DNA of 64,000 nt from Ruditapes philippinarum (Eukaryota), in the NCBI RefSeq assembly GCF_026571515.1, contig NW_026855520.1:1-64000 (forward strand), in the 5' to 3' direction. Under the pieces are notes generated by a model. It searched no databases. It worked only from the letters and a program-made list of their open reading frames with translations, and had not been told where the DNA came from. A program made the position numbers and the translations under genes. This document shows positions 8,466-54,100 of this stretch, in pieces; position 1 is the first letter of the stretch; each line of letters starts with the position of its first letter.

Positions 8466-11014
8466 ATGATTCAAATAATGGAGAAATGTGGAATAATTCT
8501 ACTGTTGATGACTATGTCTGCCTTGCATCCAGCGACCTGTTACTTGCATAGTGACATGACTAGACTAATCGAGGATCTTTTCAACGACACAAGATACAGC
8601 AGACTTATCCGCCCAATTTACAACCAGGATAAAGTGATGGAGGTAATGGTTGACGTTCGTGATTTCGCATGATATGATTCACATGCCGTATGTTTTTGCT
8701 TTAACTTAAAGATCCGGCAACTCAATTTTGTATGGTTTGATATCATAAATATAATGCTCAAATGAAGATTTATCAAAATTGTAGGTTCCAAAAAGCATTA
8801 TTTGTCAAGATATTTCCGAATTTACATTTCATGTTAATAAAGAGAGGTAATTACAAAAATTTATTTTCTATAAAGTCTGAGGCAAATTTTTCAAAAAGAA
8901 ATGAATGCATATATCTTAATGATTACATATCATGTGGACACATAATTATTATTTGAAGTACATATTTTACTTATTCTTCGATATTTGAAAATTGTTTAAG
9001 AAGCATAATTATATACATATACTAAATTTCATTTAAGTGTGGCCGAGTGATTAAGGTCGCTGACTTGAGATCACAGGTCCCTCACCGCTGCAGGTTCGAT
9101 CCTCACCCGGGTCGAAATCTTTCATGTGAGGAAGCCATCAAGCTGGCTTAAGGAAGGTCGGTGGTTCTACCCAGGTGCCCGCTCGTGCCCGAAATAATGC
9201 CCGGAGGGGCACCTGGGGTCTTCCTCCACCAATAAAGCTGAAAAAAAATCGACGAAAAAATCTCGGCGGGACGCTCTAGGATGGCCCGACTTGAGTGTAC
9301 GGTCGCCCATATGTGCTTTCCGGCGGCGACCTTAAATAAACGCATTAAAAAAAATAACATGGTAAAACATTAATTACAACATACAAGATCTTTAAACTGC
9401 TTGAATTGATTGGTCTTTGCCACCATAGTCATTCCAGGCTGGTCAACTGTGCAATCTTACCAGGCATTATATTGTGTTGTTGTTTTCTTCTTTTTTTAAT
9501 TTTTCTCTTTTTTGTATTTTGATATTCAAATATTGTAAACTTTGAAGGACTGTCGGTTCAAAGCTCAAAGCCGACCAAGTACAATACGTGAATTGTGAAT
9601 ATTGAGGATAAATATTTAACAGTAAGGCAAACTTTACTCAAATTTCAAATAAACTTATTGCTAAATAAAGTTTATAATATATTTTTATGAATTATTTTGT
9701 GGATTATTTTAATCTAAATAAAGTCTTTTTTATACACAGGTCAACATTACTCCTGGAATTATGACTATTGAAAGTCTGGACTTAACAACGAGTGAACTTC
9801 TTACTATAATGTATATTCAGATATCATGGATCGACGAGTTTTTGATGTGGAATCCCTTTGACTATGGAGGTATCACAAAGTTACCCGTACCTTACGAAAA
9901 ACTTTGGATACCACCTTTATCACAGTCAAACGGAGCAATGAAAGAGAAGTCAGGCCAAATAATAAATCCTGGTTTTGCCCCAGTTTTCGTTTTACCTAAT
10001 GGATACGTGCTCCTCGTCACTACAGGATACTACGTAACTAACTGTGAAATAAACACTAGTTTGTATCCATTTGACTCGCATAAATGCACTTTTTATTTCT
10101 TTTCCGCGTTGAATGATGCCACAGAAATGGAGTTGAATTCTCTTACATCTGATTTTGCTCTCGGGTTACTTCAACAAAATGATGCATGGCGTCACACAAA
10201 GACTGATTTTAAAAAAGACACATTTTCAGCCGAGAATATTGCGTACAACATAGCCAGGCTTCAGTTTACGATAACACTAAAACGAAGACCTATATTTGAG
10301 ATCATAAATGTTTTTCTGCCGATTCTTCTGTTAACAGTTCTAAACCTTGCGGCTTATTTTGTTCCTGTCAATTCAGGCGAGAACGTTGCATACACTTTAG
10401 GCAGGCTTCAGTTTACGATAACACTAAAACGAAGACCTATATTTGAAATCATAAATGTTTTTCTACCCATTCTTCTGTTAACAGTTCTAAACCTTGCGGC
10501 TAATTTTGTTCCTGTCAATTCAGGCGAGCGTCTCTCATTTTCGATTACTTTATATCTTTCATTTGTATTCATAACGTCTGCAATGGTAAATGAAATGCCT
10601 CATGTCGCAAAGAATATAGCGTTTTCCTCTTACATCATGCTTTCTTTAAACGTCCTCAATACCGCAAGTGTACTTTGGAGTGTGTTTATGGTGCGGATGG
10701 CAACTTGGGCAAATCAAACGACACCGGTACCAATTTCTTTGCAGAAAGTGGTGAAGTTGGTCCACAAAATAGGTTCGACCACTTCTACGAAAGTCCATCC
10801 AAAAATAAACACAACCGATGACGATTCTGATGCAATCTCAACGGATAAAGGTCTTGAAAATTCTGATATTTATGATGAAGGAATAGTTGAAAAAGAATCA
10901 ATATTGTGGTCTGATGCAGTGAAAGTCTTTGACAAGATTTACTTTACGGTCACAACTGTTTTAGTCACATGCGTTATTTCAGTCATGATTTGTCTGTGGC
11001 ATCTTTCTGAATGA
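8466..11014 (+). CDS. Cys-loop ligand-gated ion channel subunit (nAChR-like, non-alpha), copy 1. Exons 8466-8642 and 9740-11014, ~483 aa including a 49-aa internal duplication
   Basis: Signal peptide, then RLIEDLF..YSRLIRP N-terminal helix. Phase-0 GT-AG intron (GAG|GTAATG ... ACACAG|GTC). W-x-D and WIPP motifs, Cys-loop CEINTSLYPFDSHKC (C-x13-C), LKRRP-M1, SGER-M2, M3, and M4 (FDKIYF). Confidence 0.93.
9037..9348 (+). mobile_element. tRNA-derived SINE with a V-domain-like body, in the intron of copy 1
   Basis: A box TGGCCGAGTG (9040), B box GGTTCGATCC (9093), body GGTCGGTGGTTCTACCCAGGTGCCC..CTTCCTCCACCAATAAAGCTG, A-rich tail. Confidence 0.85.
10232..10525 (+). repeat. In-frame 147-bp tandem duplication within the copy 1 CDS
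   Basis: Units 10232-10378 and 10379-10525 encode ENIAYNIARLQ...AAYFVPVNSG and ENVAYTLGRLQ...AANFVPVNSG. Confidence 0.95.
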
Positions 11015-14000
11015 AAAGCTGCTGTCCTTATGTTGATTAAATTTTCTATATGACTGACAAAATAAGTGTCATCATAAAAGTATGTAAGATTTTAAAATGC
11101 TGAAGCTGTTATCAAGTGATGTTATCAAAGACTGAAACTGAAAGTCACTTTATCTATTTTTATAATAACATGTATTTTTCTTAAATTTTCTTACGCAAGA
11201 CACTTTAAAACACAGTTATTCTCCCTCAGTTTCATTCATATTTCAAATGTGATAAAATCTTAAATCTTAAATTAGGAAAAACTCTCACTTGAGCCGTAAC
11301 ATGTATGTACTTAACCTTAAATTAGGAGTTTTTAAAGTTATGCTAGGATTTCTAGAAACAATATTTCCTAAATAAGATTATTTTCCAGAATAAACCATCT
11401 TTTTTGTTACTTCCACTATTGTAACCGTTTAATAACCGTTGAATAAAATATAAATTATCACAGAAAGTGTAACTCTATGTCATTCGAAATTGTGTTCATA
11501 AATCAGTGAGAATGATAAAGTTTGTAAAGGTATGGTCAGTCATTTTTCTAGTCCATTACAGTTCCATATCGAGCATAATTTAGTTATCAATTAAACCAAT
11601 GATTGGTGCCCTACATTATTTACCGATATTATAGCGAGTTCTTTGAATAAAAATATATTTTACCTTAGTGTTAACGTGACATTTATATTAGACAGCTCTG
11701 ATTGGTGCATTTTGCAGATGCGCGATGACGTAGAATCCTACCATTGCCGCTATATCAGAAGAACTGCGATGCCTGATCATACAACATAAATTATAACAAA
11801 AGTATAACTCTTTGTCATTTGATTGCTTTGTCAATAAATCAATGAGAATAATAAAGTCTGTAAAAAAAATGGTCAGTCATTTTTCTAGTCCACCACAGTT
11901 CCATATCGAGCATTGAGTTACCAACGTTTTCCTTGGTATCTATCTGAAAATCTTTACCATTATCATATCGCATCATCAAATACCCATGTTGTTTCCTGCC
12001 TCCTGTTCGAGGTTCTACTTCATAAAAAGTGTCTTCCTCTGTTTCAACTCCGAGATGAAACTGGTGTTTTGTAACATTTTATATCCGTTTGTTTGTCGCT
12101 AGAATTACTGGCATTTTTTGTCTCAGTTAACATGGTACTATTTAATGTTCATGAAATGCGACGGATCATAGGAGCCATTGATTCGAAACGCTCTTCCTAA
12201 CTTAATGCTCGACAATTTTTTTTGGGAGCCGTTATGTCTCTACGTTGAGTATGCTGAATTTCATTCTTATCTGTCTTTTAAGTAATCTTTTTTTCCCTCT
12301 AAATCGCTTTTGTTGCTCATTGATTGCTCCTGCATTTTCAGTTCTCTCCTTCATCTCTCCCCCCAGTAGTTTCAATTTGAGCACATACCGGTACTTCACG
12401 ATTTACTTCATGGTCACCATATGCGAGTGCGCATATACATGAACTACATTTCCATTAATTTGTGATCAGCTAGAAACATAAGATGTTTTGATTGAACTGT
12501 TATTACAAATAATAATATTATTTGATCATATTTATATGCGCAATACTATGAAATATTCATTCATTTCGAATAAACTGCCGTTTAGTCGGGTAACTTTGAA
12601 GAAAACCCAGCGGTCAGATCACTGTCGAGTTACACTTGCGGTGAGTTTTAGATTACACATCTTCTGATAACTTGAAATGATCGTAATGACAGCTTTATTT
12701 CCTTTAAGAGTAATCAATTCCCTACTATTTGGTACTAAGATATTGAAAATTGGTGAAAAAATGTTGAAGTTATGGAGTTCATATTAAGATGAGTGCTGAA
12801 AATTGAGCGGCGAGTTGCATACCTTTACTAAATATATATGTATCAATTTTTTATTTTTGGTAGGAAATGAAGTTTATTGAATTAAAAGCATAAACCAAAT
12901 ATTAAAACATATTTCAAATGAAAAATACTGTATTTTACATGGTTTTGAGAGGTATGAGGGCTGTAGAGTGGGTGTGGGGGTGAGGGGGGGGGGTGCGGGG
13001 GTAGTGACCAATCAACGCGCCGAACACCTATGGTAGGAAGGAATGAATGTCGGTTATATTATTAAAGCTTTTAAGAGTAACCGCGTTCAGTTCAAACATA
13101 GATGCATACAAACATACAAATGTAAATACTATTACGTCCAGCCGTTAATAAATTGGTTTTCGCAAATATTCAGGTTATTTATGTTGTATTTTGGCAACAG
13201 TTGTAAGAATCAAATAAGTAATGGTTAGTTTCTGTTCAAATCTGATTTACTATTTCACAATTTACATTTGCCTGTCATAAACTATGTTCATTAATATGCC
13301 ATGTAAAATTAGACACTTAGTTATTGTAGATAATATACCACAAAGTAATAAATATACTTTTATTTATCAGCAAGAAAAACTGGTAATAAGCACTGAAAGG
13401 AATCGTGTTTTTATGAGCAAATAATTGTATGTTAATCATAAGGAAAGTAGAAATGCTTGTCAAACACGCGTTCTCTTTTCCTCTGTTCTGAAAATGTAAC
13501 AATCATTACATTTAAACTCTCTTTATTTTCTTTGAGAAATATTGTCGTCATCTTACAATGTTAAGTATTTACTTCTGCTTATTCAATATATTTCATTTAT
13601 ATGTGAACTAATGGAAAATGATTGGACAAAGCCAAAAGTGGTGTGTAGAATAATTATTCTTGTCTCATTTGTTACATTGTTGGCTGAAGTAATTTATGTG
13701 TTAATCTTCTTTTATAAACTTCTATTTCAAAGATGTTGACAAATTACGAAAATGATAAAGATGTCTTAAAGGATTCCGCAATCTTCCACACAAGTAAGGT
13801 CTACCATACCTAATAGATGTGTGAATATGTATGTGATAGAACCTGAGCATTTCAACTGTCTTTTTTTGACAAATAAAATACATTGTGCAGCCATTGTAGT
13901 AGTTCTTGTATTCATCGGCCTTTAGGCTCGGATATGAAAAAGTATTTCTTTCCATTAACAAAATCAATTGCTTTGAAATATTATTCTTTTTATGGTTAAA

Positions 14001-14222: not shown

Positions 14223-15498
14223 ATGGAGAAATATCAAAGTTGAATAATTGATTTTTTTGTGTTCATGTCTGCCTTGCATACAGCGATCTGCTACTTGCAT
14301 AGTGAAATGACCAGACTTATTGAAGATCTTTTCAACAAAACAAGATATAGCTAGCAGACTTATTCACGCAATTTATAAGCAGGATAAAGTCATGGAGGTA
14401 ATTATTGATAATTTTGGTTAGACTAAGTCATGATTCAAATGCAGTTTGTTTTTGTATTACCCTTAACCAGCTTTAATCGATTGTGATTGGCTTTTGCCAC
14501 TAGTATTCAGTTATACTCAAACCGCCTGTACATCCATGAACTTGGTACCATTGTTCTATATTGTTGTTATCTCATGTTTAATAAGTTCGTCTGTTTCGAA
14601 AAAAAAGTCATACTTTTTTATTACAGAGGCATACACATGAAGTTGTTGTCGTCATGTGCAATGTAGCTTATCATTCAAATATTTTAAAAGTTATCGACAA
14701 CTATAGGATAACTTGCTAACCATGACAGTTGTGCAGTTGTTAGGGACACAATCTGAAAGCAATATTTTTTATGTCTTCCTTTCATTCGTAGAATATTTTT
14801 CAAAACAGATTATAATGGTTGTTGCCCTAAACAGACGAGCTTTAAAACCACATGCCGGGCTCTTTTTGTATGTATTTATTTATTTATTTAGTTGCAGTTA
14901 GTTTATTTTTTGTAATTAAATAATTTTCATTTACTCTTTTATATTTGGAAGCGACTGTCTGCTCAAAAATCAAAGCCGAACAAATACAATACCTTTTGAA
15001 AATTGAACATAGATAATTAACAATAAGGCAAATCCCATATCACACATAATAATTTTCTTGTAGAATAAAGNNNNNNNNNNNNNNNNNNNNNNNNNNNNNN
15101 NNNNNNNNNNNNNNNNNNNNNNNNNNNNNNNNNNNNNNNNNNNNNNNNNNNNNNNNNNNNNNNNNNNNNNNNNNNNNNNNNNNNNNNNNNNNNNNNNNNN
15201 NNNNNNNNNNNNNNNNNNNNNNNNTTTAAATTCCTTTAAAACACAGGTCAACATAACTCCTAAAATAATGACTATTGAAAGTCTGGACTTAACAAAGGGT
15301 GAACTACTTACCATCATGTATATTCAGCTGTCATGGATCGACGAGTTTCTGATGTGGAATCCCTTTGAGTATGTAGGTATCAACAAGGTTACCCGTACCT
15401 TACGAAAACTTTGGATACCACCATTATCACGACCAAACGTAGCAATGAAAGAGAAGTCAGGTCAAATAATAAATCCTGGTTTTGCCCAAGTTTTCGTT
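14223..15498 (+). pseudogene. nAChR-like copy 2, truncated pseudogene (exon 1 14223-14397; exon 2 from 15247, breaking off at ~15498)
   Basis: TGA at codon 7 (14241), a 4-bp insertion in exon 1 and a frameshift near 15383. The exon ends after INPGFA and joins sequence upstream of copy 3. Spans the N gap. Confidence 0.88.
15071..15223. other. Assembly gap (153 N)
   Basis: Run of N. Confidence 1.
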
Positions 15499-15939
15499 AT
15501 ACTTATTAAGTTATACACTTAAGATATACCATAACTTGTTGATGTGTGATAAAATCTTAGCATTTCATCTCTTCTTTTAGGCATTGCAGTGGCTCTTGTA
15601 ATTGATAGGATATCTTGTGCAGTGATGTGAAAAAAAGTACATTTTTTTTTCCACGAAAAAACTTAATTGCCTTAAAAATATTTGTTGCTCAATGGTTAAA
15701 TATTATTATAAAGATAGGTGGTAAATTGACTTGAAAGACAAAGTTTTCTTAAGGACAGCCATCGGCAAGCAAATTCATGATAATACTCTTTATTCCATAT
15801 AGTATTGAATGCGAAACACAAAAGATCCATTAGAATTATCAATATTGCTGAGACTATATTTAAATGATAGCAATTTACTGCCTCAAAACAATATTTAAAA
15901 ATTACTCACCATTTGCGTGTACATCGTAAATGATAGAAA

Positions 15940-18900
15940 ATGGAGACATATCAAAGTTGAATAGTTGCATTTTATATGTTCATGTCTGCCTTGCATCCAG
16001 CGATCTGCTACTTGCATAGAGACATGACTAGACTTATTGAAGATCTTTTCAACGACAAAAGATAAAGCAGAATTATCCGCCCAATTTATAACCAGGATAA
16101 AGTCATGGAGTTATCAGTTGATAATTTTGATTTTATACCTTCTTTTCACCAGGACAAAGTCAAGGAGGTCAAAGTTGATTAATATGGTTTGTCAGACTTC
16201 AAAAACCGTTTGTTTTTGCTTTACCCTTAATCTGATTGGAGCGATTTTGATTGGCATTTGCCATTAGTATTCAGCCACTCAAGCCGGCTGTGAATCGCCG
16301 AACTTGGTTCTATATTGTCATTATAATAATATGATTATATTAGTTTGTCTGTTTCGAGAAAAAAAGCCATACCTTAATGTTGTCAATAAATTTTGTTATC
16401 TAGGTGTAATGTTATCAAGTAATGGAAAATTTTATAATGCTCAAAAAACTTTATCTGGGCAAGCACTACGTGCCCTATTTACTCTTACTCATTATTTGAT
16501 GTTGTATCTTTAGCTGTCTCAGAAAAGTTGAAATTGTTTGATGCAATGATTTTGCCAATTTTAAACTATGGATGTGAAATATGGGGATTCCATAAAGCCC
16601 CTGATATTGAAAAAGTGTACATTTCTTAAACAGATATTGCATGTTAGACAGCAAACCACTAACATTACTGTATATGCTGAACTTGGTAAAGTACCATTAG
16701 ATATAATTAGGAAAGAACGTATTCTTAAATATTGGTGTAAAATTGTGAATTCTCCAAATACAATGGTGCACAAAAGTTTTATAGATAGTAAGCATAACAA
16801 TGTTAAGGATTCTTGGGCAGTATTTGTTAAATCATTACTAGAAAACTTAGGTTTTGCATATTTATGGAATTGTATTTCCATTTCTCAATATCAATTGAAT
16901 GCTGTGATCGAAAGATTGTATAGTCAATATTATCAAGATTTATACTCAATGATTGATACAATGCCAAAACTGAGTACCTATAAAATTATAAAAGATTGCA
17001 TTGGATTTGAAAAATATTTGACGTGTGTCAAAACTGATGTTTATCGTATTGCATTAACTAGATTAAGATGTTCATCCCATAGACTTGCAATTGAAGAAGG
17101 TCGTTTCAGAAATGTTGTAAGAGAAGATAGAAAATGTATATATTGTAAAATGAATGCTATTGAAAATGAATATCATTTTGTTCTTGTGTGCCTGCATTAT
17201 CGAGATATAAGAAATGCATGTCTCCCTAAATATTATTGCCATTGGCCAACGTCTCAGAAATTTAAAACTTTGTTAACTACACAACAGTCGAATGTTTTAA
17301 ATAAGTTAGCAAAATTTATATATTTAGCAAATATAAAACGCACTGCATTTACTGATTAGATTTATATTAGTTCAAATATAATACTGTATTACTTTTTATG
17401 CATGTAAAGCACATAATTTTGTTTGTGTGGCCTGGTAACATGTACCGATCTTGTATTATACATGTTTATACTTATACGACCCAGTTATCGGAATATTTTA
17501 TCGGACAATGTAGTAGTCACTTGCAAATAAATTTATGTGCTATCGAATTGAAATGTATAAATATGAGTGTTTCCTTATACATATATATTATAATTGACAT
17601 TTATCATCATTCTTTGTATATAACATACTCTTCTCATGATATTTGTTGCCGCCTAATATATTCATTTAGGCAAAAAACTGTATATAATGTTTATATGCCT
17701 AATAAAATATTGAATTGAATTGAATTATATGATCACTGCGGCATATAGTTGTTGTCGTCGTGCAAAAACTTTAATGTTCAATGTAGCTCATCATTCAAAT
17801 GTTTCAAAAGTTATAAACATCTTGGATAACATGCTAATCATGAAAAATGTGCAGTTGTTAGACAAGGGACATAATCAAAAAGCTTCATTTTTAGATATCA
17901 TCCTTTCAATCTCAGAATATATGTTAAAATTGATTATTATAGTCGTTGCCCTAAACAAACTAGAGTCAACACCACATGCCGTGCTCTTTTTTGTATTAAT
18001 TGATTGATTGATTTATTTATTTTAAATTATTTCATTTATTTTTTATTCTTGGTATTCACATCCTTTATTCTTTTATTTTTGTAAGTAACTATGTGCTCAA
18101 AAATCAAAGCCGGACAAGAACAATATGTGAATTTTGAAAATCAAGGATTGATAATTAAAAATAAGGCAAATCCCATATCACACATTAATAAACTTTTTGT
18201 TAAATTTTGATTAAAGATAATATCTACATGTATGGCTTTATTATTTAAATCTGAATAAATTCCTTTTATACACAGGTCAACATTACTCCTGGAATTATGA
18301 TTATTGAAAGTCTGGATTTAACAAAGGGTGAACTACTTACCGTCATGTATATTCAGCTGTCCTGAGAGTTTCTGATGTGGGATCCCTTTGAGTATGGAGG
18401 TATCACAAAGTTACCCGTACCTTACGAAAAACTTTGGATACCACCTTTATCACAATCAAACGGAGCAATGAAAGAGAATTCAGGCCAAATAATAAATCCT
18501 GGTTTAGCACCAGTTTTTGTTCTACCTAATGGAATGGTGTTCTTTGTCACTACAGAATACTACGTAACTAAATGTGAAATAGACTCTAGTTTGTATCCAT
18601 TTAACTTGCATAAATGCACTTTATATTTCTTTTCCGCATTTAATGATGTCACAGAAATGGAGTTGAATTCACATAAATCTGATTTTGCCTTAGAGTAACT
18701 TCAACAAAATGATGATTGGCTTCACACAAAGACTGATTTTAAAATAGACACATATTCAGCCGATAACACTAATAACACTAAAACGAAGACATATTTTTGA
18801 AATCATAAATGTTTTTCTGCCGATTCTTCTGTTAACAGTTCTAAACCTTGCAGCTTACATTGTTCCTGTCAATTCAGGAGAGCGTCTCTCATTTTCTATC

Positions 18901-19352
18901 ACTTTATATCTTTCATTTGTATTCATAACTTTGGCGTCGCAAAGAATATAGCGTTTTCCTCCTATATTATGCTTTCTTTAAACGTCCTCAATACATCAAG
19001 TGTACTTTGGAGTGTGTTTATGGTGCGGATGGCAACTTGGGCAAAGTAAACAACACTGGTACCATTTTCCTAGCAGAAAGTGGTAAGGTTTTTTCAAAAT
19101 ATAGGTTCGACCACTACTACAAAAGTCCATCGAAATTTGAACACAACAGATGACGATTCCGATGTAATCTCAATTGATAAAGGTCTTGAAAATTCTGACA
19201 TTCATGAAAATGAAATACCGATAGTTGAAAAAGAATCAATATTGTGGTCTGATGCAGTGAAAGTCTTTGACAAGATTTACTTTACGGTCACAACTGTTTT
19301 AGTCACATTCGTTATTTCAGTCATGATTTGTCTGTGGCATCTTTCTGAATGA
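15940..19352 (+). pseudogene. nAChR-like copy 3, near full-length pseudogene (exon 1 15940-16110; exon 2 18276-19352)
   Basis: TGA at codon 7 (15958), splice donor mutated to TT (16111), LINE in the intron. Deletions near 18365, 18763 and 18932, and stops at 18696 and ~19047. Confidence 0.92.
16373..17727 (+). mobile_element. 5'-truncated non-LTR retrotransposon (LINE; RTE-X-like, clade tentative) in the copy 3 intron
   Basis: RT C-terminal FCYLGVMLSSNG. ORF 16568-17359 has RLRCSSHRLAIEEGR..CIYC..ENEYHFVLVC zinc motif. AATAAA plus a (TTGAA)3 tail. Absent from the matching intron site of copy 4 (~24130). Confidence 0.9.
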
Positions 19353-23705: not shown

Positions 23706-25170
23706 ATGGAGACATATCAAAGTTGAATAGTTGCATTTTATATGTTCATGTCTGCCTTGCATCCAGCGATCTGCTACTTGCATAGAGACATGACTAGACT
23801 TATTGAAGATCTTTTCAACGACAAAAGATACAGCAGAATTATCCACCCAAATTATAACCAGGATAAAGTCATGGAGGTATCAGTTGATAATTTTGATTTT
23901 ATACCTTATTTTAACCAGGACAAAGTCAAGGAGGTCAAAGTTGATTAATATGGTTTGTCATACTTCAAAAACCGTTTGTTTTTGCTTTACCCTTAATCTG
24001 ATTGGAGCGATTAGGATTGGCTTTTGTCATTAGTATTCATTCACTCAAGCCGACTGTGCATCCTCGAACTTGGTTCTATATTGTCACTATATTATGTTAG
24101 TTTGTCTGTTTCGAGAAAAAAGTCATACTTTTATGATCATTGCGGCATATAGTTGTTGTCGTCGTGCAATAACTTTAATGTTCAAAGTAGCTCATCATTC
24201 AAATGTTTCAAAAGTTATCAATATCTTGGATAACATACATGTGCAGTTGTTAAACAAGGGACATAATCAAATAGCTACATATTTTAGATATCATCCTTTC
24301 AATCTTAGAATATATGTTAAAACCAATTATTATAGTCGTTGTCCTAAACAAACTAGAGTCAACACCTCATGCCGTGCTCTTTTTGTATTTATTTATTTAT
24401 TTTAAATTATTTCATTTATTTTTTATTCTTGGTATTCAAATCCTTTATTCCTTCATTTTTCTAAGTAAATATCTGCTCAATAATCAAAGCCAGACAAAAG
24501 CAATATGTTAATTATGAAAATCAAGTATTGATAATTAATAATTAGGCAAATCCCTTATCACACATTAATTAACTTATTGTAGAATAAAGTTAAATTTTGA
24601 TAAAAGATAATATCTACATGAATGGCTTAATTATTTAAACCTGAATAAATTCCTTTTATACACAGGTCAACATTACTCCTGGAATTATGACTATTGAAAG
24701 TCTCGATTAAACAAAGGGTTAACTACTTACCATCATGTATATTCAGCTGTCCTGGATCGACGAGTTTCTGATTTTTGCCTTCGGGGTACTTCAAAATGAT
24801 GCTTGGCGTCACACAAAGACTGATTTTAAAAAAGTCACATATTCAGCCGAGAACATTGCATACACTGTAGGCAGTCTCAGGTTTACAATAACACTAAAAC
24901 GAAGACCTATTTTGAAATCATAAATGTTTTTTCCGCCGATTCTTCTGTTAACAGTTCTAACCTTGCGGCTAACATTTTTCCTGTCAATTCAGGAGAGCGT
25001 CTCTCATCTTCGATCACTTTATATCTTTCATATGTAATCATAACGTTTGCGTCGCAAAGAATATAGCGTTTTCCTCCTACATTATACTTTCTTTAAACGT
25101 CCTCAATACAGCAAGCGTACTCTGGCGTGTGTTTATGGTGCGGATGACAAATTTGGCAAATAAAATCACA
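23706..25170 (+). pseudogene. nAChR-like copy 4, pseudogene (exon 1 23706-23876; exon 2 24666 to ~25170)
   Basis: TGA at codon 7 (23724). A ~306-bp deletion at 24770 removes the Cys-loop. Frameshifts in M1, and truncation after M3. Confidence 0.92.
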
Positions 25171-27595: not shown

Positions 27596-29635
27596 ATGGA
27601 GAGATATCAAAGTGGAATATTTGTATTTTTCATGTTCATGTCTGCTTTGCATCCAGCGACCTGCTACTTGCATAGTGATATGACTAGACTAATCGAGGAT
27701 CTTTTTAACGAAACAAGATACAGCAGACTTATCCGCCCAATCTATAACCAGGATAAAGTTATGGAGGTAATAGTTGATTATTATGGTTTATCCTTATTGT
27801 TTTTTTTCCATTTTTTTAACCTGCTTAAAGCTATTGTGATTGGCCTCTGCCATCAGTATTCAGCCATTCAAGCCGCCTGTGCATCGTCTTTTTTGGTACT
27901 ATATATTGTGGTTATCTCAGGTTTCATTTGTTCGCCTGTTTCGAAGAAAAAGTCACATTTACAGATCACTGCGGCATATAGTTGTTGTCGTTGTGTAAAA
28001 ACTTTAATGTACAACGAAGCTCAACATTCAAATATATCTTAAAGTTATCAATCAACAACTTGGATAACTTGCTAATCATGACAGTTGTGCAGATGTTAGA
28101 CAAGGTACATAATCTGATAGCTATATTTTTTTAGATGTCTTCATTTCCACCTTAGAATACATTTCAAAACTGATTATTATAGTTGTTGCCCTAAACAGAC
28201 GAGCGTTAACACCTTATGCCGTGCTATTGTTTTGTATTAATCTATTTAAAATTATTTCATTTATTTATTTATTTTGGTATTCAAATCTTTTATTCTTTTA
28301 TTTTTTTAAGTAACCGTCTGCTCAAAAATAAGTCGGACAAAAACAATGCGCTTATTCAGAAAATCTAGGATTGATAATTAACTATAAGGCAAATCCCATA
28401 TTACACATAAATAATTTTTGAGAATAAAGTTTAATTACAATAATAGATAAAATATTTACATGAATCGCTTTATTATTTAAATCTAAAGAAATTCCTTTTA
28501 TACACAGGTCAACATCACTCCTGGAATTATGACTATTGAAAGCCTGGACTTAACAAAGGGTGAACTACTTACCATCATGTATATTCAGCTTTCATGGATC
28601 GACGAGTTTTTGATGTGGAATCCCTTTGAGTATGGAGGTATCACAAAGTTATCCGTACCTTACGAAAAACTTTGGATACCACCTTTATCACAATCAAACG
28701 GAGCAATGAAAGAGAAGTCAGGCCAAATAATAAATCCTGGTTTTGCCCCAGTTTTCGTTTTACCTAATGGAATGGTTCTCCTTGTCACTACAGGATACTA
28801 CGTAACTAAATGTGATATTGACACTAGCTTGTATCCATTTGACTCGCATACATGCACTTTTTATTTCTTTTCCGCGTTGAATGATGTCACAGAAATGGAG
28901 TTGAATTCTCACACATCTGATTTTGCCTTCGGGTTACTTCAACAAAATGATGCATGGCGTCACACAAAGACTGATTTTAAGAAAGGCACATATTCAGCCG
29001 AGAACATTGTGTACACCTTAGGCAGTCTTGAGTTTATAATAACACTAAAACGAAGACCCATATTTGAAATCATAAATGTTTTTCTGCCGATTCTTCTGTT
29101 AACAGTTCTAAACCTTGCGGCTAATTTTGTTCCTGTCAATTCTGGCGAGCGTCTCTCATTTTCGATCACTTTATATCTTTCATTTGTATTCATAACGTCT
29201 GCAATGGTAGATGAAATGCCTCATGTCGCAAATAATATAGCGTTTTCCTCCTACATAATGCTATCTTTAAACGTCCTCAATACAGCAAGTGTACTCTGGA
29301 GTGTGTTTATGGTGCGAATGGCAACCTGGGAAAATAAAATGACACCGGTACCAATTTCATTGCAGAAAGTGGTGAGGTTTTGCCAAAATATAGGTTCGAC
29401 CACTACTACAAAAGTCCATCCAAAAATAAACACAACCGATGACGATTCCGATGCAATCTCAACGGCTAAAGGTCTTGAAAATTCTGACATTTATGATGAA
29501 GGAATAGTTGAAAAAGAATCAATATTGTGGTCTGATGCAGTGAAACTATTTGACAAGATTTACTTTACGGCCACGACTATTTTAGTCACGTGCGTTATTT
29601 CAGTTATGGTTTGTCTGTGGCACCTTTCTGAATGA
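27596..29635 (+). CDS. Cys-loop ligand-gated ion channel subunit (nAChR-like, non-alpha), copy 5, intact. Exons 27596-27766 and 28508-29635, 432 aa
   Basis: Signal peptide, phase-0 GT-AG intron, Cys-loop CDIDTSLYPFDSHTC, four TM helices and an SGER ring before M2. No stops or frameshifts. Confidence 0.95.
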
Positions 29636-39488: not shown

Positions 39489-40345
39489 TTTTTATCTCCC
39501 GCCGAAAAGGCGGCGGGGGATACACATGTATAGAAATAGTCTCCGTCCGTCCGTTCGTCCTTCCGTCCCACATTTTTGTCCGGAGCATATCTCAAAAAGG
39601 TTTTGAGGTATCAACTTGAAACTTCATAGGTTAACAGATCATATTGAGGAGGAGTGCATTGCATTAGAATGATAATTCTTTCCTTCATATTTTTTCAGTT
39701 ATTGCCCTTTGTTATTTTTCAAACTTAATTTTTTGTCCAGAACATAACTCAAAATGCCTTTGAGATATCAACATGAAACTTAATAGGTGGATAGATCTCT
39801 CTCAGGAGGTGTGCAATGCACAAGAATGATAACTCAACCCTTCATAATTTTTGAGTTATTGCCCTTTGTTATTTTTCATGCTTAATTTTTAATGAGTATA
39901 GCATAACTCAAAAAGTCTTTGAGCTGTCAACATGAAACTTCATAGGTGGATAGATCTTATTGAGGAGGAATGCTGTGCGCAACAATGATAACTCTATCCT
40001 ACTCTTTATAAATTTTGAGTTATTGCCCTTTGTTATTTTTCTGCTTTTTGTACAGAGCTTCTCTCAAAAAGTGTTAGAGGTATCAACTTGAAATTTCATA
40101 GGTGGATAGATCTCATTGAGATGGAGTGCAGCACACAAGAATGATACTCTTTCTGCATTATTTTTCAGTAATTGCCTTTAGTTATTTTCAGCCATCAGTA
40201 TTCACATAGGTTTCAAACTTGTAATCACTTCAGCCATCAGTTTTCATTACCAAATTAAAGACCTCTTACTGCTCTACTACATATACATTCTTCTAATGAG
40301 CAAACAAATTCGGCGGGGTATGGCCATGTTAACATGGCTGTTGTT
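39489..40345 (+). mobile_element. HINE-like element with four tandem repeats of ~157 bp
   Basis: Subterminal inverted repeat CCCGCCGAA / TTCGGCGGG, (TCCG)n microsatellite, units near 39620, 39776, 39935 and 40091, terminal palindrome GCCATGTTAACATGGC. Confidence 0.85.
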
Positions 40346-41142
40346 GAAATTTGCATCAGCGTTTTTCCCACCCGTCATAAAGCCACCATAATTAGCCTGA
40401 TATAAGGAAACAACAAGTTAACTGCTGCAGTCCTGACTGCAAATAAATTTACCTCAGGTCAACACAAAAACAGCTAGCATGAATCCCGAAAATTATTACA
40501 ATAAATGATTCTGGTAAGTCTCACCAGATAAAGGCCTTGAAAACACTGATGATGAAGCGATACGTTTGAAATGATTAACTTTACCATTACAACTGTGTTA
40601 GTTACAAGTGTTGTTTAAGACATTATTTGTACGACTTGTTTATGGCATAATTCTGAATAAAATTGCGCCGTCTATTAAATTTGTTGGTTATACATGTGTA
40701 TATTATATTTGACAAACAAAACTAAACCCGGAAGATTACATTTTCTTTGCTTTTTAGGTCACACCAACAGTCTTAAGGTCATTTTTATACTCTAAATCAC
40801 TTGCCCTCTCAGCGCTATGGGTTCGGGTCCTAAAATAATATTATCTCATGAGATGAATGAATGCCGCTATCCCGCTAGCCTACGTAAAGTCAGTACTGCT
40901 TAAGTGCCCTCTCATGTCTAAAATAAACTTTAATTTAAATAAAAATACAAAACAGGGACATTAGTTAGATATCTTACATTATGCAATTTTTGTTTTATCT
41001 AACATTTTTATTTAGCTACTTTATTTCAGCTTATCAGCAAATGACAATGCGAATCTTAAATATCGTGTGAACAAATAACCACACTTAATGTGTCTTTTCA
41101 TTTTGTCGTAAAGCACTGTTAGCACATTTTTCAATCATCACG

Positions 41143-44100
41143 ATGGAATTACAGAACGTACTTGCTTGTATTTTTGTCTTAACGGTGATTTCGTCTACAA
41201 CCGGCCAACATGTTGTTGATGGAAATACACTGACAGAAATAATGACGGAGTTGAAGAGTTTGAAAGAGGCTCAAAATGTGCTAGATAAGTCTTCAGAGAT
41301 ACGTGATCTGAAATTTCGCGTTTTGGCTTTGGAAAATACTGTGGACGGCCTACTAGATACAGTGAAAATGTTGCAAAACGATAATAAAGAACTTGTATCC
41401 GAGATCCATCAACTACAAAATGAGAAACTACACACTTCAGTGTTGAAGGTACGAGTAATTTATCCTATCAACCAACAAAATTTTGTTAGTTTTGTCCTAT
41501 TACCGACGAACGGTATAAGGTTGCTATGCATGTTTAAGTATGGAATGCGGGGGTCAGGGGTTTTAGTTTAGTACATATTAGTAAGGGAGGGAGAAGGGGT
41601 TTCGAAAAAGTATATATATGTTTTTGGTTTCCTGTACACCTTGATTTCTTGTTTTTCTTTACAGTTTTCAGAAACATATTCAATTCGTCAATTTTTGCCT
41701 TGAAAAAGAACATTATGTCATGTGCTAAATCAATTTGCCCTTTGCTCAGCTAGTTGATGTCACTCTCAAATAAGAAATATATTTCATTAATATATTACAG
41801 ACTGACATAAATCAGCCAAAAACAGATTTGAATGAAGAGATTGACTACAAAGCAGATCTAGAAGTCACGACGGATCTACACGGAAAAGAAAATATGGAGA
41901 TAAAGAATCATATAAGCAGTATGCATGCTACATATAGCCTATAAACAACCTAAAGTTTTATCAGTTACAAAGATTTTCGACAAGCTATATGACCTTATAT
42001 AAACGGCTGTTTATAACCAGAGACGCTAGGCGAGTGTTATATTTAAAACAACCGGTTCTATACGGCGATATAACTTATCAGGAATCTTTATAACGAATTT
42101 ACAATACAGCAAGCTTCTTTTTTATAAAAAAGTGAAATATCTAAGCAGCCGTTTATATAACACTACATGTATATAAACGTCACGATAATCAAATGAAAAA
42201 CGCCATTACAAACGTGCAGTATTATAAATCTTATTATAACCGATAACATATTTATTGACAGAAGCCAGTCCTTCTGTAATGCTAATAATTTCGTTTTTAA
42301 AATTATAATGGAACATTCGGTGCCCTAGTGTGGTGGCACTGTGTTGCTGGATTTGTCGATGGGTACGTTCTTTAATTGTTACTCTGCCTTGACAATCTTT
42401 TTTCTCATACCTGACAAGCAAGCTGCTTTATCTTCGATATGTAAATGTATATTTTATAAATATGAATATGTATATAATAAAGGAAATAAATACTATAATG
42501 TATGGTAATTCAACTCAAATAATGTTTCTTCATGAAAGATTAGGTCAGAAGTTTCAAATCGCTCTTTTGTATTCTTCACAGAAACAATGGGAAAACGTGC
42601 GTTTACCTTCTCGCCAACACTTCCTGCAACATCTCCGCCACAACCAGGTATGAATTTATCGACATACAGTACGTTGCATATGTATTTTGAATTGCCCAAA
42701 CACTGAAACAAATACAACTAGAAATGTGTCGTCACGCTACGGATGCCCCCGCATGCAGCCAAAATTTCAAATGTTATAATATTTCGTTCCAAATTTGTTT
42801 TCACATTTAAAGTTCAAAGCCCTTAAAACTATTCAATGTTAACACAGATCATTTTATACAAAGTTCAAGGCACTGAAACTATTTAGTGTTAACCTTTAGT
42901 AAATTGCATATAGCATATGTGTAGCCAAAATAATGAATACATGCATTTCCACAAAAGTATGAGTGCTGAAATTTTTCCAATATTCAAGAGAGATAACTTT
43001 GTCCAAAATCATTCAACCACAGCCAAATTCAAACTTGAACAGCTTATTCCTAAGATGTATCTATAAAATGTATCTATATGTCAAATATGAGTTGACTGTG
43101 TATAACCATTGGGGAGATAATGAACAGAAACTAAAAATTTCTGATTTTTTTTTCAAAGTACAAGAGGGATAACTCTGTCAGCTATCATCAAAACCATGAC
43201 CAAATTTGAACTTGACCTGTGCATTCCTTTGACATATCCATATGTCAAATTTGAGTTGAATGTGTAATACCCTTGAGGTGATAATGAAGGGAAACTGAAA
43301 ATTTCTAATTATTTTCAAAGTGAAAGGGGCATAACTCAAGTTCGAATTTGGTCATGGTTTGATGATTTTTGGCAGAGAAATGCCACTTTTACCTTGGAAA
43401 AAAAGAAAGAAATTTTCAGTTTCCGTGCATTATCTCCCCAACAGTTGTACATATTCAACTCAAATTTAACATATGGATATGTAATAAGAATACACTGGTC
43501 ATGCTCGAATTTGGTCATGGTTTGATGATAGCATACAGAGTTATCCCTCATGAACTTTGAAAAAAATCAGAAATTTTTAGTTTCCGTTCATTATCTCCCA
43601 AATGGCTGTACACATTCAACTCAAATTTGACATATACATACATCTAAGGAATCAGCAGTTCAAGATGGTTCGATGATTTTGGATTAAGTAATCATCGTAC
43701 CATCGCGCTTTCACCATCATACCATCGTGTTTCATCATCGTACCATCGCGTTTTCATCATCGTACCATCGCGTTTTCACCATCGTGTCATCGCGTTTTCA
43801 CCATCGTCCCATTGCGTTTTCACCATCGTTCCATCGTACCATCGCCTTTCGGTCAGTATAATCAGTACACATACAGAAAGATGTCAGATTCTGTTAAGGT
43901 AGATATTAAAAAACAAGTTTAGAATACTTGATATTTAATTTTAGTTATAAATAATAAAACTTGTTATCTTTACAAAAAATTATGATGTGATACTGTATAT
44001 AGATCAACGACTATTTAATATATGGTTATATGCTATATATATGTTTGCATTTTTTCTCTTGCTTTATTTTATATATCGACTTAAAACTTTACATGTACAG

Positions 44101-46178
44101 TCCACAAGGATGACAACTTCGTTTTAATTTTTGAGTGATTGCCTTTTGTTAATTTCATGTTCCAAACACTAAGATCTAAAAGATACACAAATAGAAAGGG
44201 TGTGCGGTTCAATAATAAGAAGGCATACATTGTTGATTAAAATATAGCATTGCGCATGACCACCGGAAGACGATGGCACGTTGGTGAAAATGCGATGGTC
44301 CGATGGTGAAAACGCGATGGCACGATCGTGAAAACGCGATGGTACGATGGTGAAAACGCTATTGCACGATGGTGAAACATCGCGCTTTCACTATCGTACT
44401 ATCGCGCCATCGTGTTTTCACCAACGTACCATCGCGTTTTCATCATCGTACCATCGTGTTTTCACCAACGTACCATCGCGTTTTCACCACCGTACTATCT
44501 CGCTTTCACCATCGTACCATCGTATCACAATGGTACGATGGTGAAATCGCGATGGCGCGATAGTACGATAGTGAAAGCGCGATGTTACATCGCGTTTTCA
44601 CCATCGTACCATTGTGATTTCACCATCGTACCATCGCGTTTCCACCATCGTACCATCGCACCATCGTGTTTTCATCATCGTGCCATCGCGTTTTCACCAT
44701 CGTTCCATCGCGTTTTCACCATCGTGCCATCGCGCTTTCACCACCGTACTATCTCGCTTTCACCATCGTACCATCGCGCTTTCACCATCATCTTTTTTTC
44801 ATTTTTTCATCCGTCCGTCTGTCTATATGTCTGTCATTTCGTCCATTCAAAGAAATCTTGATCCGATGAGAACTTAAAACTTACAAAAACTATGTTCATG
44901 ATGCTTGATACATGTATGTGGACAGAGGGACTTAAAAAGCACAAAAGATAAGTTGATGATACTTAATATATAGATCGGGGACCAAGAAATCTAGGTCCTG
45001 CTATAACACAAAAAGTTCAAAGGGGAGGCTGAAGATACTTAGTATGTAGATAGAGGACCATATGGAGATTATGTATGGCATATAAATGTTTTTAATGTGG
45101 TTGCTATGGTTATAGAAATTACTAAAATAAACAACAACAATGAAATTTGATACATTACAAACATCCTGTAATTACTCATAACATTAAATTTAAAGTATGT
45201 TGTAATTAATGATGTAACAACATTTAAGTGAAAGTTTATAAACGTGTACAATTATTCTTCTAAAACAATTTCCAAACCTCCAAGAATATGTTAAATATGT
45301 ACTGCAAATGTTTATTCGCATAATAAATAATCTGTAAAATATATGCATTAAAAATTTGGTTACGTCTTTATCGAAAATAAATTTCTAATTACCTCTCTTT
45401 ATTTACATGAAATGTACATTCGGTAATATCTTTACAAATAATGCTTTTTGGACCTTACAATATTGCTATATCTTCATTTGAGCATCATATTAATGATACA
45501 AAACCTTAAAAAATTTGAGTTACAGGATCTTTAACATTTGTTCCCATGATGTAAAAGTAATGTCAATTTCCTAATTTTTGCATAATTTCTTCCTAGTTAT
45601 GTGTCAGAAATAAATTCTTTAAAAGTGAATTTACATGAGTTAATTGAGGTAGAGAATATGACAGCATAGGTAGAGGGCTACTAAAATGTCTGTGACAATC
45701 TCTTGTTGTCTTGATTGCTAGAAAATTACATCTTACGTTAAAAACATTTTCTAACATTACAGGTAACCCTGTGAATATTGCTTTTTCGGCCGCTTTATCA
45801 CAAAGTGAAGTTGACCTTAGACAAGGCGATACGATTATTTTCGACAAAGTGTTTGCAAACATAGGAAGTGCTTACAATTCCAACACCGGTGTAATCACTG
45901 CTCCCACCAAAGGCGCATACTTGGTGTCACTAGCCATGTCAATCGAGAATGGACAGAAATTTTATTTAGTACTGACGAAAGAAGGCGTGCATTTATTCGA
46001 TATTTATGCTGACAGTACTACTAATAACGAATTCACGTCTACAACCAAAGAATGGATTATCGATTTAAACCAAGGGGATAGTGTCTGGGTTCGCAGTGGA
46101 ACAAATGGCCAGCTTCATGGAAATTTACATTCAATGATTACTGGTTTTCTATTGTTTGAGACCAACTATATAAATTAA
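41143..46178 (+). CDS. Secreted C1q-domain-containing protein (signal peptide, coiled coil, linker, gC1q), 301 aa. Exons 41143-41448, 41801-41918, 42582-42647, 45763-46178
   Basis: GT-AG junctions with phases 0/1/1 join into one open frame of 906 nt. Heptad-rich exon 1. C1q motifs IAFSA, IIFDKVFANIGSAYNSNTGVITAP..GAY, LNQGDSVWV and GFLL. AATAAA at 46195. Confidence 0.9.
41925..42250. mobile_element. Degenerate long-hairpin element in C1q intron 2
   Basis: Imperfect fold-back ~41960-42095 (AAAGATTTTCGACAAGCTATAT / ATATAACTTATCAGGAATCTTT). Confidence 0.45.
42716..43692. mobile_element. Two fragments of the 52589-53998 HINE family fused in opposite orientation at 43335/43336
   Basis: 42716-43335 is the reverse complement of that element's 3' end. 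43336-43692 is the same core unit in forward orientation. Confidence 0.8.
43693..44790. repeat. 22-bp minisatellite (CACCATCGTACCATCGCGTTTT) arrays in alternating orientation around an AT-rich spacer
   Basis: Forward 43693-43848, spacer, reverse 44270-44378, forward to ~44525, reverse ~44530-44585, forward to 44790. Confidence 0.9.
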
Positions 46179-51100: not shown

Positions 51101-54100
51101 ATGACCAGTCAGAGAGATGCTTTCAGTTACCGGAGTGTTTCTCCGACAATGTCACCGACACTTTCTCCACATGCATCTCCCCCATCATCACCATACTTCT
51201 CCAAGACAGAGGACCCTGCGAGGCAGGAACTGAGATTATCGGCAAATGCAAAACGACAGAAATATTTGAGGCGGTTGTTAAAATTTAAACAGATGGATTT
51301 TGAATATGCATTCTGGCAAATGATATATCTGTTTGTAGCGCCACAAAAAGTGTAAGATAAAGTTTTTGTAAATTGTATTTACAATAGTTTTATAGGTTAG
51401 CGATGAAGATAAATAGTGTTCCTATTGACTTGTTAAAAGTTATACATACCTCAAATTTTGAAATAAGGAGGCAAGCATACAATTATTATTATATACATGT
51501 ATAAAGGTTTTTTCAAATTAGGGGCTCAAGGAAAATTACTTACACTGTATCTATAATAGTTTAAAACAGCATACCTCCAGAAGATATTTTATATATTTGA
51601 AAATCTTGCTGTATGTGTTTAATTATTTAGAAAAAAAAAATACTATGATTCCAAATGGACCAAATAATAAAGTATTGTTTGATTTATAATGTGTAACATG
51701 AATATATTTATGTTTGTCTATTATTTTACTTTTATTAACACTGTCTGATAGACATCTGTATCACTATTGATCCATTTTAATACATATACCAGCTTTATTT
51801 ATAACATAAATATTTGTTTCTACATGTTACCCTATTTTTGCTGCTAAACGCCATAAAGTTTTACGCGTGTTCCGTTATGACGTCGCTTCCTTATGTTTTG
51901 CACTGATGAAGGCATATAGCCGAAATGTATGCAATAAATAATTACTGAATGTTTGTGTTTGTTTATTTCAATTATTTAAAAGAAACTTTTCTGCCTTTTT
52001 CAGATACAGAAATTTTCAGTATAGGAAAAGTAAGTAAGAAACATTATTCAGTGTCCTGGTTTCTTTGAAGTATTCTGAATCAGTTTTCACAAAAGACTTA
52101 ATTTAAGTAATCTTTTCTGAAAATTCATGTAAATACATGACTGTGTATATGCATAAAGTAATTATCCACCCATTCATACAATTTACAAATGCCAACATTA
52201 CATGCTAATGATGTATAGGTTTGTAAATTGAACAGATTCAATATCTGTATTGCATTGTTTTGTTTTGTTTCAAGCACTAACTGTAACATTTTATCTCTTT
52301 CACCTTCAGCTATGGAAATTTGAGTTATTCACTTAATAATAAGTGCTCTGTATATCTTATTTCAGACACAAAAGACCAGTGGGCAAGAGATGACCCTGCT
52401 TTCCTAGTCTTGCTGAGTTTTTGGTTGATAAGTATGTAATGTTTGCTTGGTTTAAAATCCTTTCTCAAATCTATAATTGTTGATTTAGCCTTATTACATG
52501 TACATTTCAGTTTTCTCTGAAAATCATGCATTAATTGGTTTCTTTTTCAAGTAGATTATTTAAATTTAATATAGGTAAAGTTTAAAGATTTTTATGCCCC
52601 CGCCATGTAATGGCCGGGGCATAAAGTGTTACCCTGTTCCGTCCTTCCGTCCTTCCGTCATTCCGTCATTCTGTCATTCCGTCATCATCAGTTTCCGTTC
52701 ATTATCTTAGTAACGGTTGCACACATTCAACTCAAATTTGACATATGGATATGTCGTGAGAAAATACAAGTCAAGTTCGAATTTGGTCATGGTTTTGATG
52801 ATTTTTGCAGAGTTATGCCCCTTTACTTTAAAATAATATGAAATTTTCAGTTTCCGTTCATTATCTCCCAATGGTACAACACATTCAACTCAAACTTTGA
52901 CATATGGATTATGTCATGAGAAAAATACAGGTCAAAGTTCGAATTTGGTCATGGGTTCGATGATTTTTGGCAGATGTTATGCCCCTTTTACTTTGAAAAT
53001 AATATGAAATTTTCAGTTTCCGTTCATTATCTCCCCAACAGTACAACACATTCAACTCAAATTTGACATATGGATATGTCGTGAGAAAATACAGGTCAAG
53101 TTCGAAATTTGGTCATGGTTCAATGATTTTTGGCAGAGTTATGCCCCTTTCACTTTGGAAATGATATGAAATTTTCAGTTTCCGGTCATTATCTCCCCAA
53201 TGGTACAACACTTTTAACTCAAACTTGACATATGGATACGTTAAGGGAATGCGCAGGTCAAGTTCAAAGTTGGTTATGGTTCAATGATTTTTGGCAGAGT
53301 TATGCCCCTTTCACTTTGAAAATAATATGAAATTTTCAGTTTCTGTTTATTATCTCCCAATGGTACAACACATTCAACTCAAATTTGAGATATGGATATA
53401 TTTTTGGAATGCCCAGGCCAAGTTGGAATTTGGTCATGGTTCAATGATTTTTGGCAGAGTAATGCCCCTTTCACTTTGAAAATAATATGAAATTTACAGT
53501 TTCTGTTCATTATCTACCCAACTACTCAAATTTGACATATGGATATGTCAAAGGAATGGGCAGGTCAAGTTTGAATTTGGTCATGGTTCGATGACTTTTG
53601 GCAGAGTTATGTCCCTTTCACTTTGAAAATAATATAGATACATCTTAGGAATAAGCAGTTTAAGTTTGAATTTGGTCGTGGTTCAATGATTTTGGACAAA
53701 CTTATCTTTCTTGAATGTTGTAAAAATTTTGAACTTTCAGTTTCAGCACTGAAATGTATGTAGCCATTATTTTGGCTACAAATATGAAATATGCTATTTT
53801 CAAAAGGTTTAGACTGAATAATTTCAGTGCCTTGAACATTGTATGAAAATGGTTTGTGTTAACATTGAAAAGTTTTAAGGGCTTTGAACTTAAAATGAAA
53901 AAAATTATTTGTGCAAACAAATTTGGAACTAAATATTATAACATCTGAAATTTTGGCTGCATGCGGGGGCATCCGTGGCATGATGACACATTTCTAGTAT
54001 CAATATTGTATGCCTTAGTCATGTCTTGCTGGTTTAGAGAGAACAAATATAGTAACAAACTGTGATCTTAGTAATATGAAGTAACATATATATTCTCTTT

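Follow-up and report, generated by a model that had tools for sequence, protein, structure and literature searches.

As assembled, the first of five tandem nicotinic-receptor-like copies in a stretch of the Ruditapes philippinarum genome carries, in its second exon, 49 codons doubled in frame, the first membrane helix included. To our knowledge, four transmembrane (TM) helices and a fixed distance between the extracellular domain (ECD) and M1 are near-universal in the Cys-loop family. The question raised by the locus is whether the doubling is a real allele or a mis-join of the assembly and, if it is real, what it would do to the subunit. We analysed a window of 64,000 nucleotides (the whole stretch of DNA considered; contig NW_026855520.1, positions 1 to 64,000), to which all coordinates below refer, the genes and repeat units described here lying on the forward strand.

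The gene with the repeat, copy 1, has one intron with both splice sites intact. Exon 1 (8478–8642; 55 codons and a GT donor) encodes the signal peptide and N-terminal helix, and exon 2 (9740–11014) encodes the ligand-binding domain (PF02931), the duplicated beta10-M1 segment, M2 to M4 (PF02932) and the stop, its frame remaining open from 9740 to the normal stop at 11014, as the initial annotation had claimed. The spliced product has 479 residues and a hydrophobic N-terminus (signal peptide), and is identical to P0001, which is NCBI XP_060588119.1, labelled ‘acetylcholine receptor subunit alpha-like’ and the sole member of its protein cluster. The ligand-binding domain scores 94.2 bits (PF02931, cut-off 26; E 9.7e-27) and the TM domain lies under the cut-off for PF02932 (E 3.1e-5). 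A Foldseek search with the predicted model gives the muscle nicotinic receptor as best match (9dmh_C; E 7e-31, TMt 0.82). The Cys loop (C157 and C171, with 13 residues between) is invariant in an alignment of 8 sequences, and so are G317, E318 and R319. Cation-selective Cys-loop channels have a Glu at position -1' before M2, within G-E-K/R, and copy 1 has this cation-type Glu in the SGER that precedes M2; the copy of the linker motif at the repeat junction reads SGEN. Acetylcholine is bound in an aromatic box made by a loop A Tyr, a loop B Trp and a loop C Tyr pair. By eye, P0001 appears to have FFSA without a Trp in loop B and no Tyr in loop A, and it contains no CC, the vicinal cysteines of loop C. 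Judged by its sequence, the product is not an alpha subunit despite its label, and the subfamily of XP_060588119.1, which lacks vicinal cysteines, may bind a ligand other than acetylcholine. The intron holds a tRNA-like repeat (9036–9355), by eye likely a SINE, with related pieces at 55091–55221 and 57057–57174; ARAGORN calls no tRNA.

The five copies lie within 8.5–29.6 kb and copies 2, 3 and 4 are broken. Copy 2 (14223–15505) has a stop at codon 7, frameshifts, an exon 2 that ends after about 90 codons, and a run of N inside it. Copy 3 (15940–19352) has stops in exon 1, a net 29-nt deletion starting from the loop C motif and a 22-nt deletion. Copy 4 (23706–25170) has a stop at codon 7, deletions of 306 nt and 22 nt, three 1-nt indels, which sit in short base runs and may be consensus errors, and a missing 3' end. 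Copy 5 (27596–29635; exons 27596–27766 and 28508–29635) is an intact four-TM paralogue of 432 residues. The three broken copies likely descend from one dead copy, since all stop at codon 7 of exon 1 (14223, 15940 and 23706). In copies 3 and 4 alike, the end of exon 1 is tandemly duplicated over 57 bp, in diverged form (16093–16170 and 23859–23936), and 22 nt are deleted behind M2; because both carry them these two events predate the copy 3/copy 4 split; the shared duplication also indicates that short duplications arise biologically in the array. Bivalve nAChR-like genes are described as intron-poor tandem arrays with decayed members, subject to birth and death (PMC6896357), and copy 1 belongs to this expansion.

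Several other elements were seen in the window. In the intron of copy 3, a 264-residue open stretch (16565–17359) resembles by eye the C-terminal portion of an ORF from a non-LTR retroelement, with no Pfam match. An exon with a C1q domain (PF00386; 45696–46178) lies downstream of an open reading frame whose start resembles a signal peptide and which includes a coiled-coil-like stretch (41089–41571), the two possibly forming one C1q-domain gene. Long imperfect palindromes composed of 160-bp satellite and 22-bp minisatellite units, possibly foldback elements, are found at 42972–43643 and 44259–44789, and the 160-bp satellite family recurs at 39573–40188 and 52688–53635.

The repeat in copy 1 was called by TRF at 10225–10528 (period 147, 92% matches) and consists of two head-to-tail units of 147 bp each. 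Unit 1 (10232–10378) matches the common copy-1 allele and holds the end of loop C, beta10, the pre-M1 KRR, the first M1 (about 10292–10360) and the M1-M2 linker; unit 2 (10379–10525) holds the second beta10-M1, with M1 at about 10439–10507. The initial annotation had called this an exact 147-bp tandem duplication, which is right in its coordinates and its tandem nature and wrong in the word exact: there are 11 mismatches between the units in 147 bases, affecting 10 codons and 5 amino acids. The breakpoints do lie, as it had proposed, in the motif TTCAG(C/G)CGAG, a 9-of-10 microhomology shared by the repeat boundaries and found at loop C (SAE; 10225–10234), at the junction (SGE-type; 10372–10381, the exchange having probably taken place within 10378–10381) and in the normal M1-M2 linker (SGE; 10519–10528). 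This microhomology is not chance, because only 84 of 223,648 junctions (3.8e-4), simulated on the copy-1 gene with one unit removed and for repeat lengths of 60–300, match as well; keeping the reading frame through the duplication is a 1-in-3 matter. No N occurs at or near the junction, the sole N run of the window being that in copy 2 (15071–15224), and no GT-AG pair 147 bases long, which could splice one unit out, starts in 10200–10400. The net 29-nt deletion of copy 3 (18755–18780) has this loop C motif as its starting point and a 9-nt tandem in its scar, and is a second, independent rearrangement at the break motif of the repeat; the motif at loop C is likely to be rearrangement-prone. A resemblance of copy 3 to unit 1 in loop C, seen in an alignment, was dropped, as the raw sequence has this deletion there.

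The differences between the units are unevenly placed. Seven of the 11, all matching copy 4, fall within 18 nt just after the junction (scan P 0.0014). A 23-nt tract opening unit 2 (10382–10404) has 2 differences from copy 4, 4 from copy 5 and 7 from unit 1. In the remaining 121 nt, unit 2 departs from unit 1 at 4 positions and from copies 3, 4 and 5 at 13, 10 and 8. Loop C varies in all copies, with 4–6 differences within the same 23 nt. The affinities first assigned to the units are not borne out: the YTLG of unit 2, thought to be like copy 5, lies in a tract nearer to copy 4, the rest of the unit being nearest to unit 1, and the AAY of unit 1, thought to be like copy 3, depends on a single base (10355), at a codon that is TAT in unit 1 and TAC in copy 3, with other changes beside it in copy 3. 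A normal form of the copy-1 protein, P0002 from a JGI contig, has AAN; it is the product of the same gene without the repeat. The simplest reading of these sequences is that the common copy-1 haplotype would have been fused, with the two misaligned, to a copy-1 haplotype that is more diverged and whose loop C has a short tract like copy 4.

We compared four of 24 listed sequencing runs (X1, X2, X5 and X24) with the window over 9400–11500. None is likely to come from the source animal, since the best of 20 runs shares 0.69 of the window words and each of the four shows fixed differences from the window. The junction at 10378/10379 is bridged in none of the four, nor is the distinctive start of unit 2 covered, and the donor of unit 2 is not seen in any of them. 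One X2 contig lacks exactly 147 bases and extends for 130 bases on the shorter side of the skip, and depth in this run is zero at 10323–10464; at 10323–10393 depth is 0.28 in X1 and 0 in X24. At 10394–10464 the depth in two runs equals what a single contig each would give, 4.41 against 4.39 from one starting at 10442 in X1, and 1.85 against 1.84 from one starting at 10457 in X5 (a start inferred from the distance-to-end value). To the left, the X2 contig has 0 differences over 10188–10321 and X5 has 1 over 10065–10334, and position 10468 has the unit-1 base in 9 of 9 X24 reads. Absence of the junction is read here from depth bins, with 23 of 151 records listed, and contigs can drop rare variants. 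What the comparison establishes is that the repeat is uncommon; it does not establish that the repeat is false. The exact junction is found 0 times in metagenome contigs, a result that says little as the same collection also has no relatives of P0002 (0 of 105 candidate stretches), and none of 1031 candidate shorter proteins holds the repeat region.

Though X24 is recorded as paired RNA-Seq, it was rejected as evidence of expression, its reads covering the two strands, the intron and sequence beyond the stop. In this run 63% of aligned reads continue into unlike sequence (with about 4% of the run examined), and the loose ends fall at GATC, of the window or of the run's allele, at five of the six sites shown, the sixth having GATCGATC. 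The pattern suggests a Hi-C library, and we counted X24 as DNA of another animal. Six putative RNA runs with 0.11–0.25 of the words were also set aside, paralogues alone reaching 0.24.

Taking all readings of a real allele together, we consider the duplication probably genuine. A real event is favoured because of the microhomology, the lack of a gap, the break of copy 3 at the same motif, the 57-bp duplication in copies 3 and 4 and the clustering of unit differences just after the junction. Within this, the reading we lean towards is a rare allele, produced through the microhomology and damaging to the subunit. The M1-M2 linker of one copy-1 haplotype would have recombined with the misaligned loop C of another, diverged haplotype, the exchange running across the 10-base microhomology by unequal crossover or by a replication template switch. 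The donor would be a haplotype resembling copy 1 apart from a short loop C tract resembling copy 4, and the product a damaged allele on its way to pseudogene status, probably giving a subunit that misfolds or does not gate.

The main alternative, which we regard as a serious but less likely possibility, is that the assembler, working on a heterozygous animal, put its two copy-1 haplotypes together with the wrong offset through the same 10 bases and that the annotation read through the result. Heterozygosity in R. philippinarum has been estimated at 3.7–4% (PMC9803972), and at this level 11 differences in 147 bases have a probability of 0.02–0.035, which is low, yet possible in a variable loop. 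False tandem duplications track heterozygosity and cause false exon gains (PMC9516828), a known link that lends the mis-join weight, as do the absence of the junction from all four runs of other animals, the one-member cluster of XP_060588119.1 and the three 1-nt indels of copy 4, should these be consensus errors. The flanks to the left and right also resemble different haplotypes. Set against contig pieces from other animals, the window shows 2 differences in 920 bases on the left side of the junction and 17 in 972 on the right (Fisher P 7e-4). The pieces overlap, five at 9974–10334 and six at 10442–10799, and were hand-picked among the 23 records listed; pieces further out were omitted, among them two right-hand ones with 0 differences. 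A haplotype mis-join predicts this asymmetry and the absence elsewhere just as a real allele does, and mis-joined haplotypes would also give unlike units, so unlike units are no evidence against an assembly echo, as had been supposed. Against a mis-join, a gap usually stands between the copies of a false duplication (PMC9516828), and there is neither gap nor N between or near these units, an arbitrary mis-join would rarely hit a 9-of-10 match, the same motif broke in copy 3, and the start of unit 2, missing from all four runs, is hence not a common allele.

If the rare damaged allele is real, its effect can be considered from the protein. By hydropathy the assembled copy 1 has five hydrophobic segments, departing from the normal four-TM layout that P0002 and copy 5, which have no repeat, retain. 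Both copies of M1 have a hydropathy of 2.21. The first would likely stop translocation, placing the second beta10 (4 K/R) in the cytosol. The second M1 might then insert in reverse, pushing the K/R-rich M3-M4 loop (9 K/R) towards the lumen, in conflict with the positive-inside rule, or else the linker beside the selectivity filter and the -1' Glu would carry a hydrophobic insert of 49 residues. The M3-M4 loop holds two native sequons, N380 and N412, which would be exposed to glycosylation only with M2–M4 flipped. Either outcome would likely lead to retention in the ER or to a silent channel. In alpha7, one residue added in the pre-M1 linker silences the channel (PMC11601209). Damage is likely given the equal hydropathies of the two M1 copies, the charge counts, the fact that three of the five copies are already broken, and the birth and death of such arrays (PMC6896357).

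We give little credence to the opposite outcome, in which the allele is real and functional, one beta10-M1 cassette keeping its normal position and the second either pushed out at loop C or the M1-M2 linker or forming a fifth helix, with altered gating, altered selectivity or a dominant-negative action. Besides the open frame and intact splice sites, this reading can draw on the work with alpha7, which describes a length-invariant segment of 37 residues flanked by an indel-tolerant loop C and M1-M2 linker (PMC11601209); the spacing of beta10, pre-M1 and M1 is kept in each unit, and since both breakpoints fall in these two tolerant loops, either unit could serve intact. An AlphaFold model built with 119 sequences (mean pLDDT 84.3) accordingly shows an intact fold of four TM helices with unit 1 (residues 224–269) looped out at pLDDT below 50; a run with 8 sequences (mean pLDDT 39.4) was unusable. 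Such a model follows the gap in the alignment and ignores the membrane, and so shows a geometric possibility only. The five-TM subunit of the initial annotation is thus borne out as five predicted hydrophobic segments and not as a five-helix bundle. Moreover, an insert of 49 residues with a full TM helix far exceeds the indels discussed in PMC11601209, the repeat is absent in all other animals examined with no sign of spread, and just one other short-period repeat of the beta10-M1 block occurs among 159 homologues. That copy 1 yields an expressed natural subunit with a doubled invariant cassette, whether by a fifth helix or a membrane-tethered loop C, and working or dominant-negative, is in our view very unlikely.

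Highly improbable, finally, is the version first proposed, in which two whole paralogues, copy-3-like on the left and copy-5-like on the right, were fused, because both flanks are copy 1 and affinity does not switch at the junction (10.1% upstream and 8.1% downstream against copy 3; 6.3% and 7.0% against copy 5). P0002 fits both flanks, differing from copy 1 at 3 of 157 residues upstream, 2 of 49 against unit 1 and 6 of 162 downstream, where copy 5 differs at 15, 8 and 16. In its favour are base 10355, common to unit 1 and copy 3, and the YTLG tract, common to unit 2 and copies 4 and 5. An unassembled sixth paralogue very near to copy 1 is conceivable, though a fixed one would be expected in the four runs, where it is absent. 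Of the earlier proposal of a microhomology-mediated crossover between different paralogues, the microhomology and a copy-4-like tract survive, the latter making unit 2 a mosaic, and an exchange driven by homology is plausible; the chimera of two paralogues does not survive.

What the locus means depends on which reading holds. A rare damaged allele would be an ordinary small step of gene birth and death in the bivalve nAChR-like expansion, while a mis-join would be a caution that XP_060588119.1 carries 49 false residues. Channel biologists would have reason to care only if the product were expressed and able to fold, as it would then be a natural test of how Cys-loop topology is set.

To place the repeat among known proteins we screened 159 homologues, comprising the best 150 of 6415 matches and those of an earlier homologue search. 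The beta10-M1 block is present in all 159 and occurs at least twice in 27. Two blocks fewer than 150 residues apart are seen in just two proteins, that of copy 1 and a Haliotis model; in the other 25 the spacing is 194–557 residues, as in fused tandem genes. The closest relatives considered, P0002 (97% identical over aligned columns) and Mercenaria mercenaria XP_045205964.2 (P0005; 62%), are four-TM proteins that differ from copy 1 in having no 49-residue repeat. A literature search, at title level and mostly open-access, returned no tested five-TM or M1-duplicated Cys-loop subunit and no paper on the copy-1 gene. The view that no such architecture is known in the family holds for tested receptors as far as this search reached. 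Among predicted models there are the Haliotis protein with its tripled M1-M2 block and the extra-TM molluscan models tabulated as LBD-TM-NTM, LBD-NTM-NTM and LBD-NTM-TM (Table 1 of Jiao et al. 2019, PMC6896357).

The bivalve arrays of that study (PMC6896357) are the nearest known system, resembling copy 1 in having one intron, a tandem array, broken neighbours, Cys-loop and TM domains and no vicinal cysteines. They differ in that the entries of its table are automatic domain calls on predicted proteins of other species, and the table has no 49-residue repeat of beta10-M1. A second comparison is offered by the pre-M1 insertion mutants of alpha7 (Godellas et al. 2024, PMC11601209), which likewise change length at the joint of the ECD and TM domains; there, one or two residues were engineered inside the linker, whereas in copy 1 the whole invariant cassette is doubled and the breaks fall in the flanking loops. 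Two single gene models also contain internal repeats, Haliotis asinina XP_067664122.1 (P0132), with three copies of a 75-residue M1-M2 block, and Mactra antiquata KAL4235547.1 (P0011), with four copies of a 194-residue unit of ligand domain and M1. Both have other repeat units, are one-member clusters and, judged from the proteins, are likely chained exons or tandem genes; they are not independent support for a five-TM design. A similar case of a rearranged nicotinic subunit is CHRFAM7A, a partial duplication of CHRNA7 with a dominant-negative action. As proposed for copy 1, it arose from a local duplication and could poison pentamers, but it loses part of the extracellular domain, keeps four TM helices and is common and expressed.
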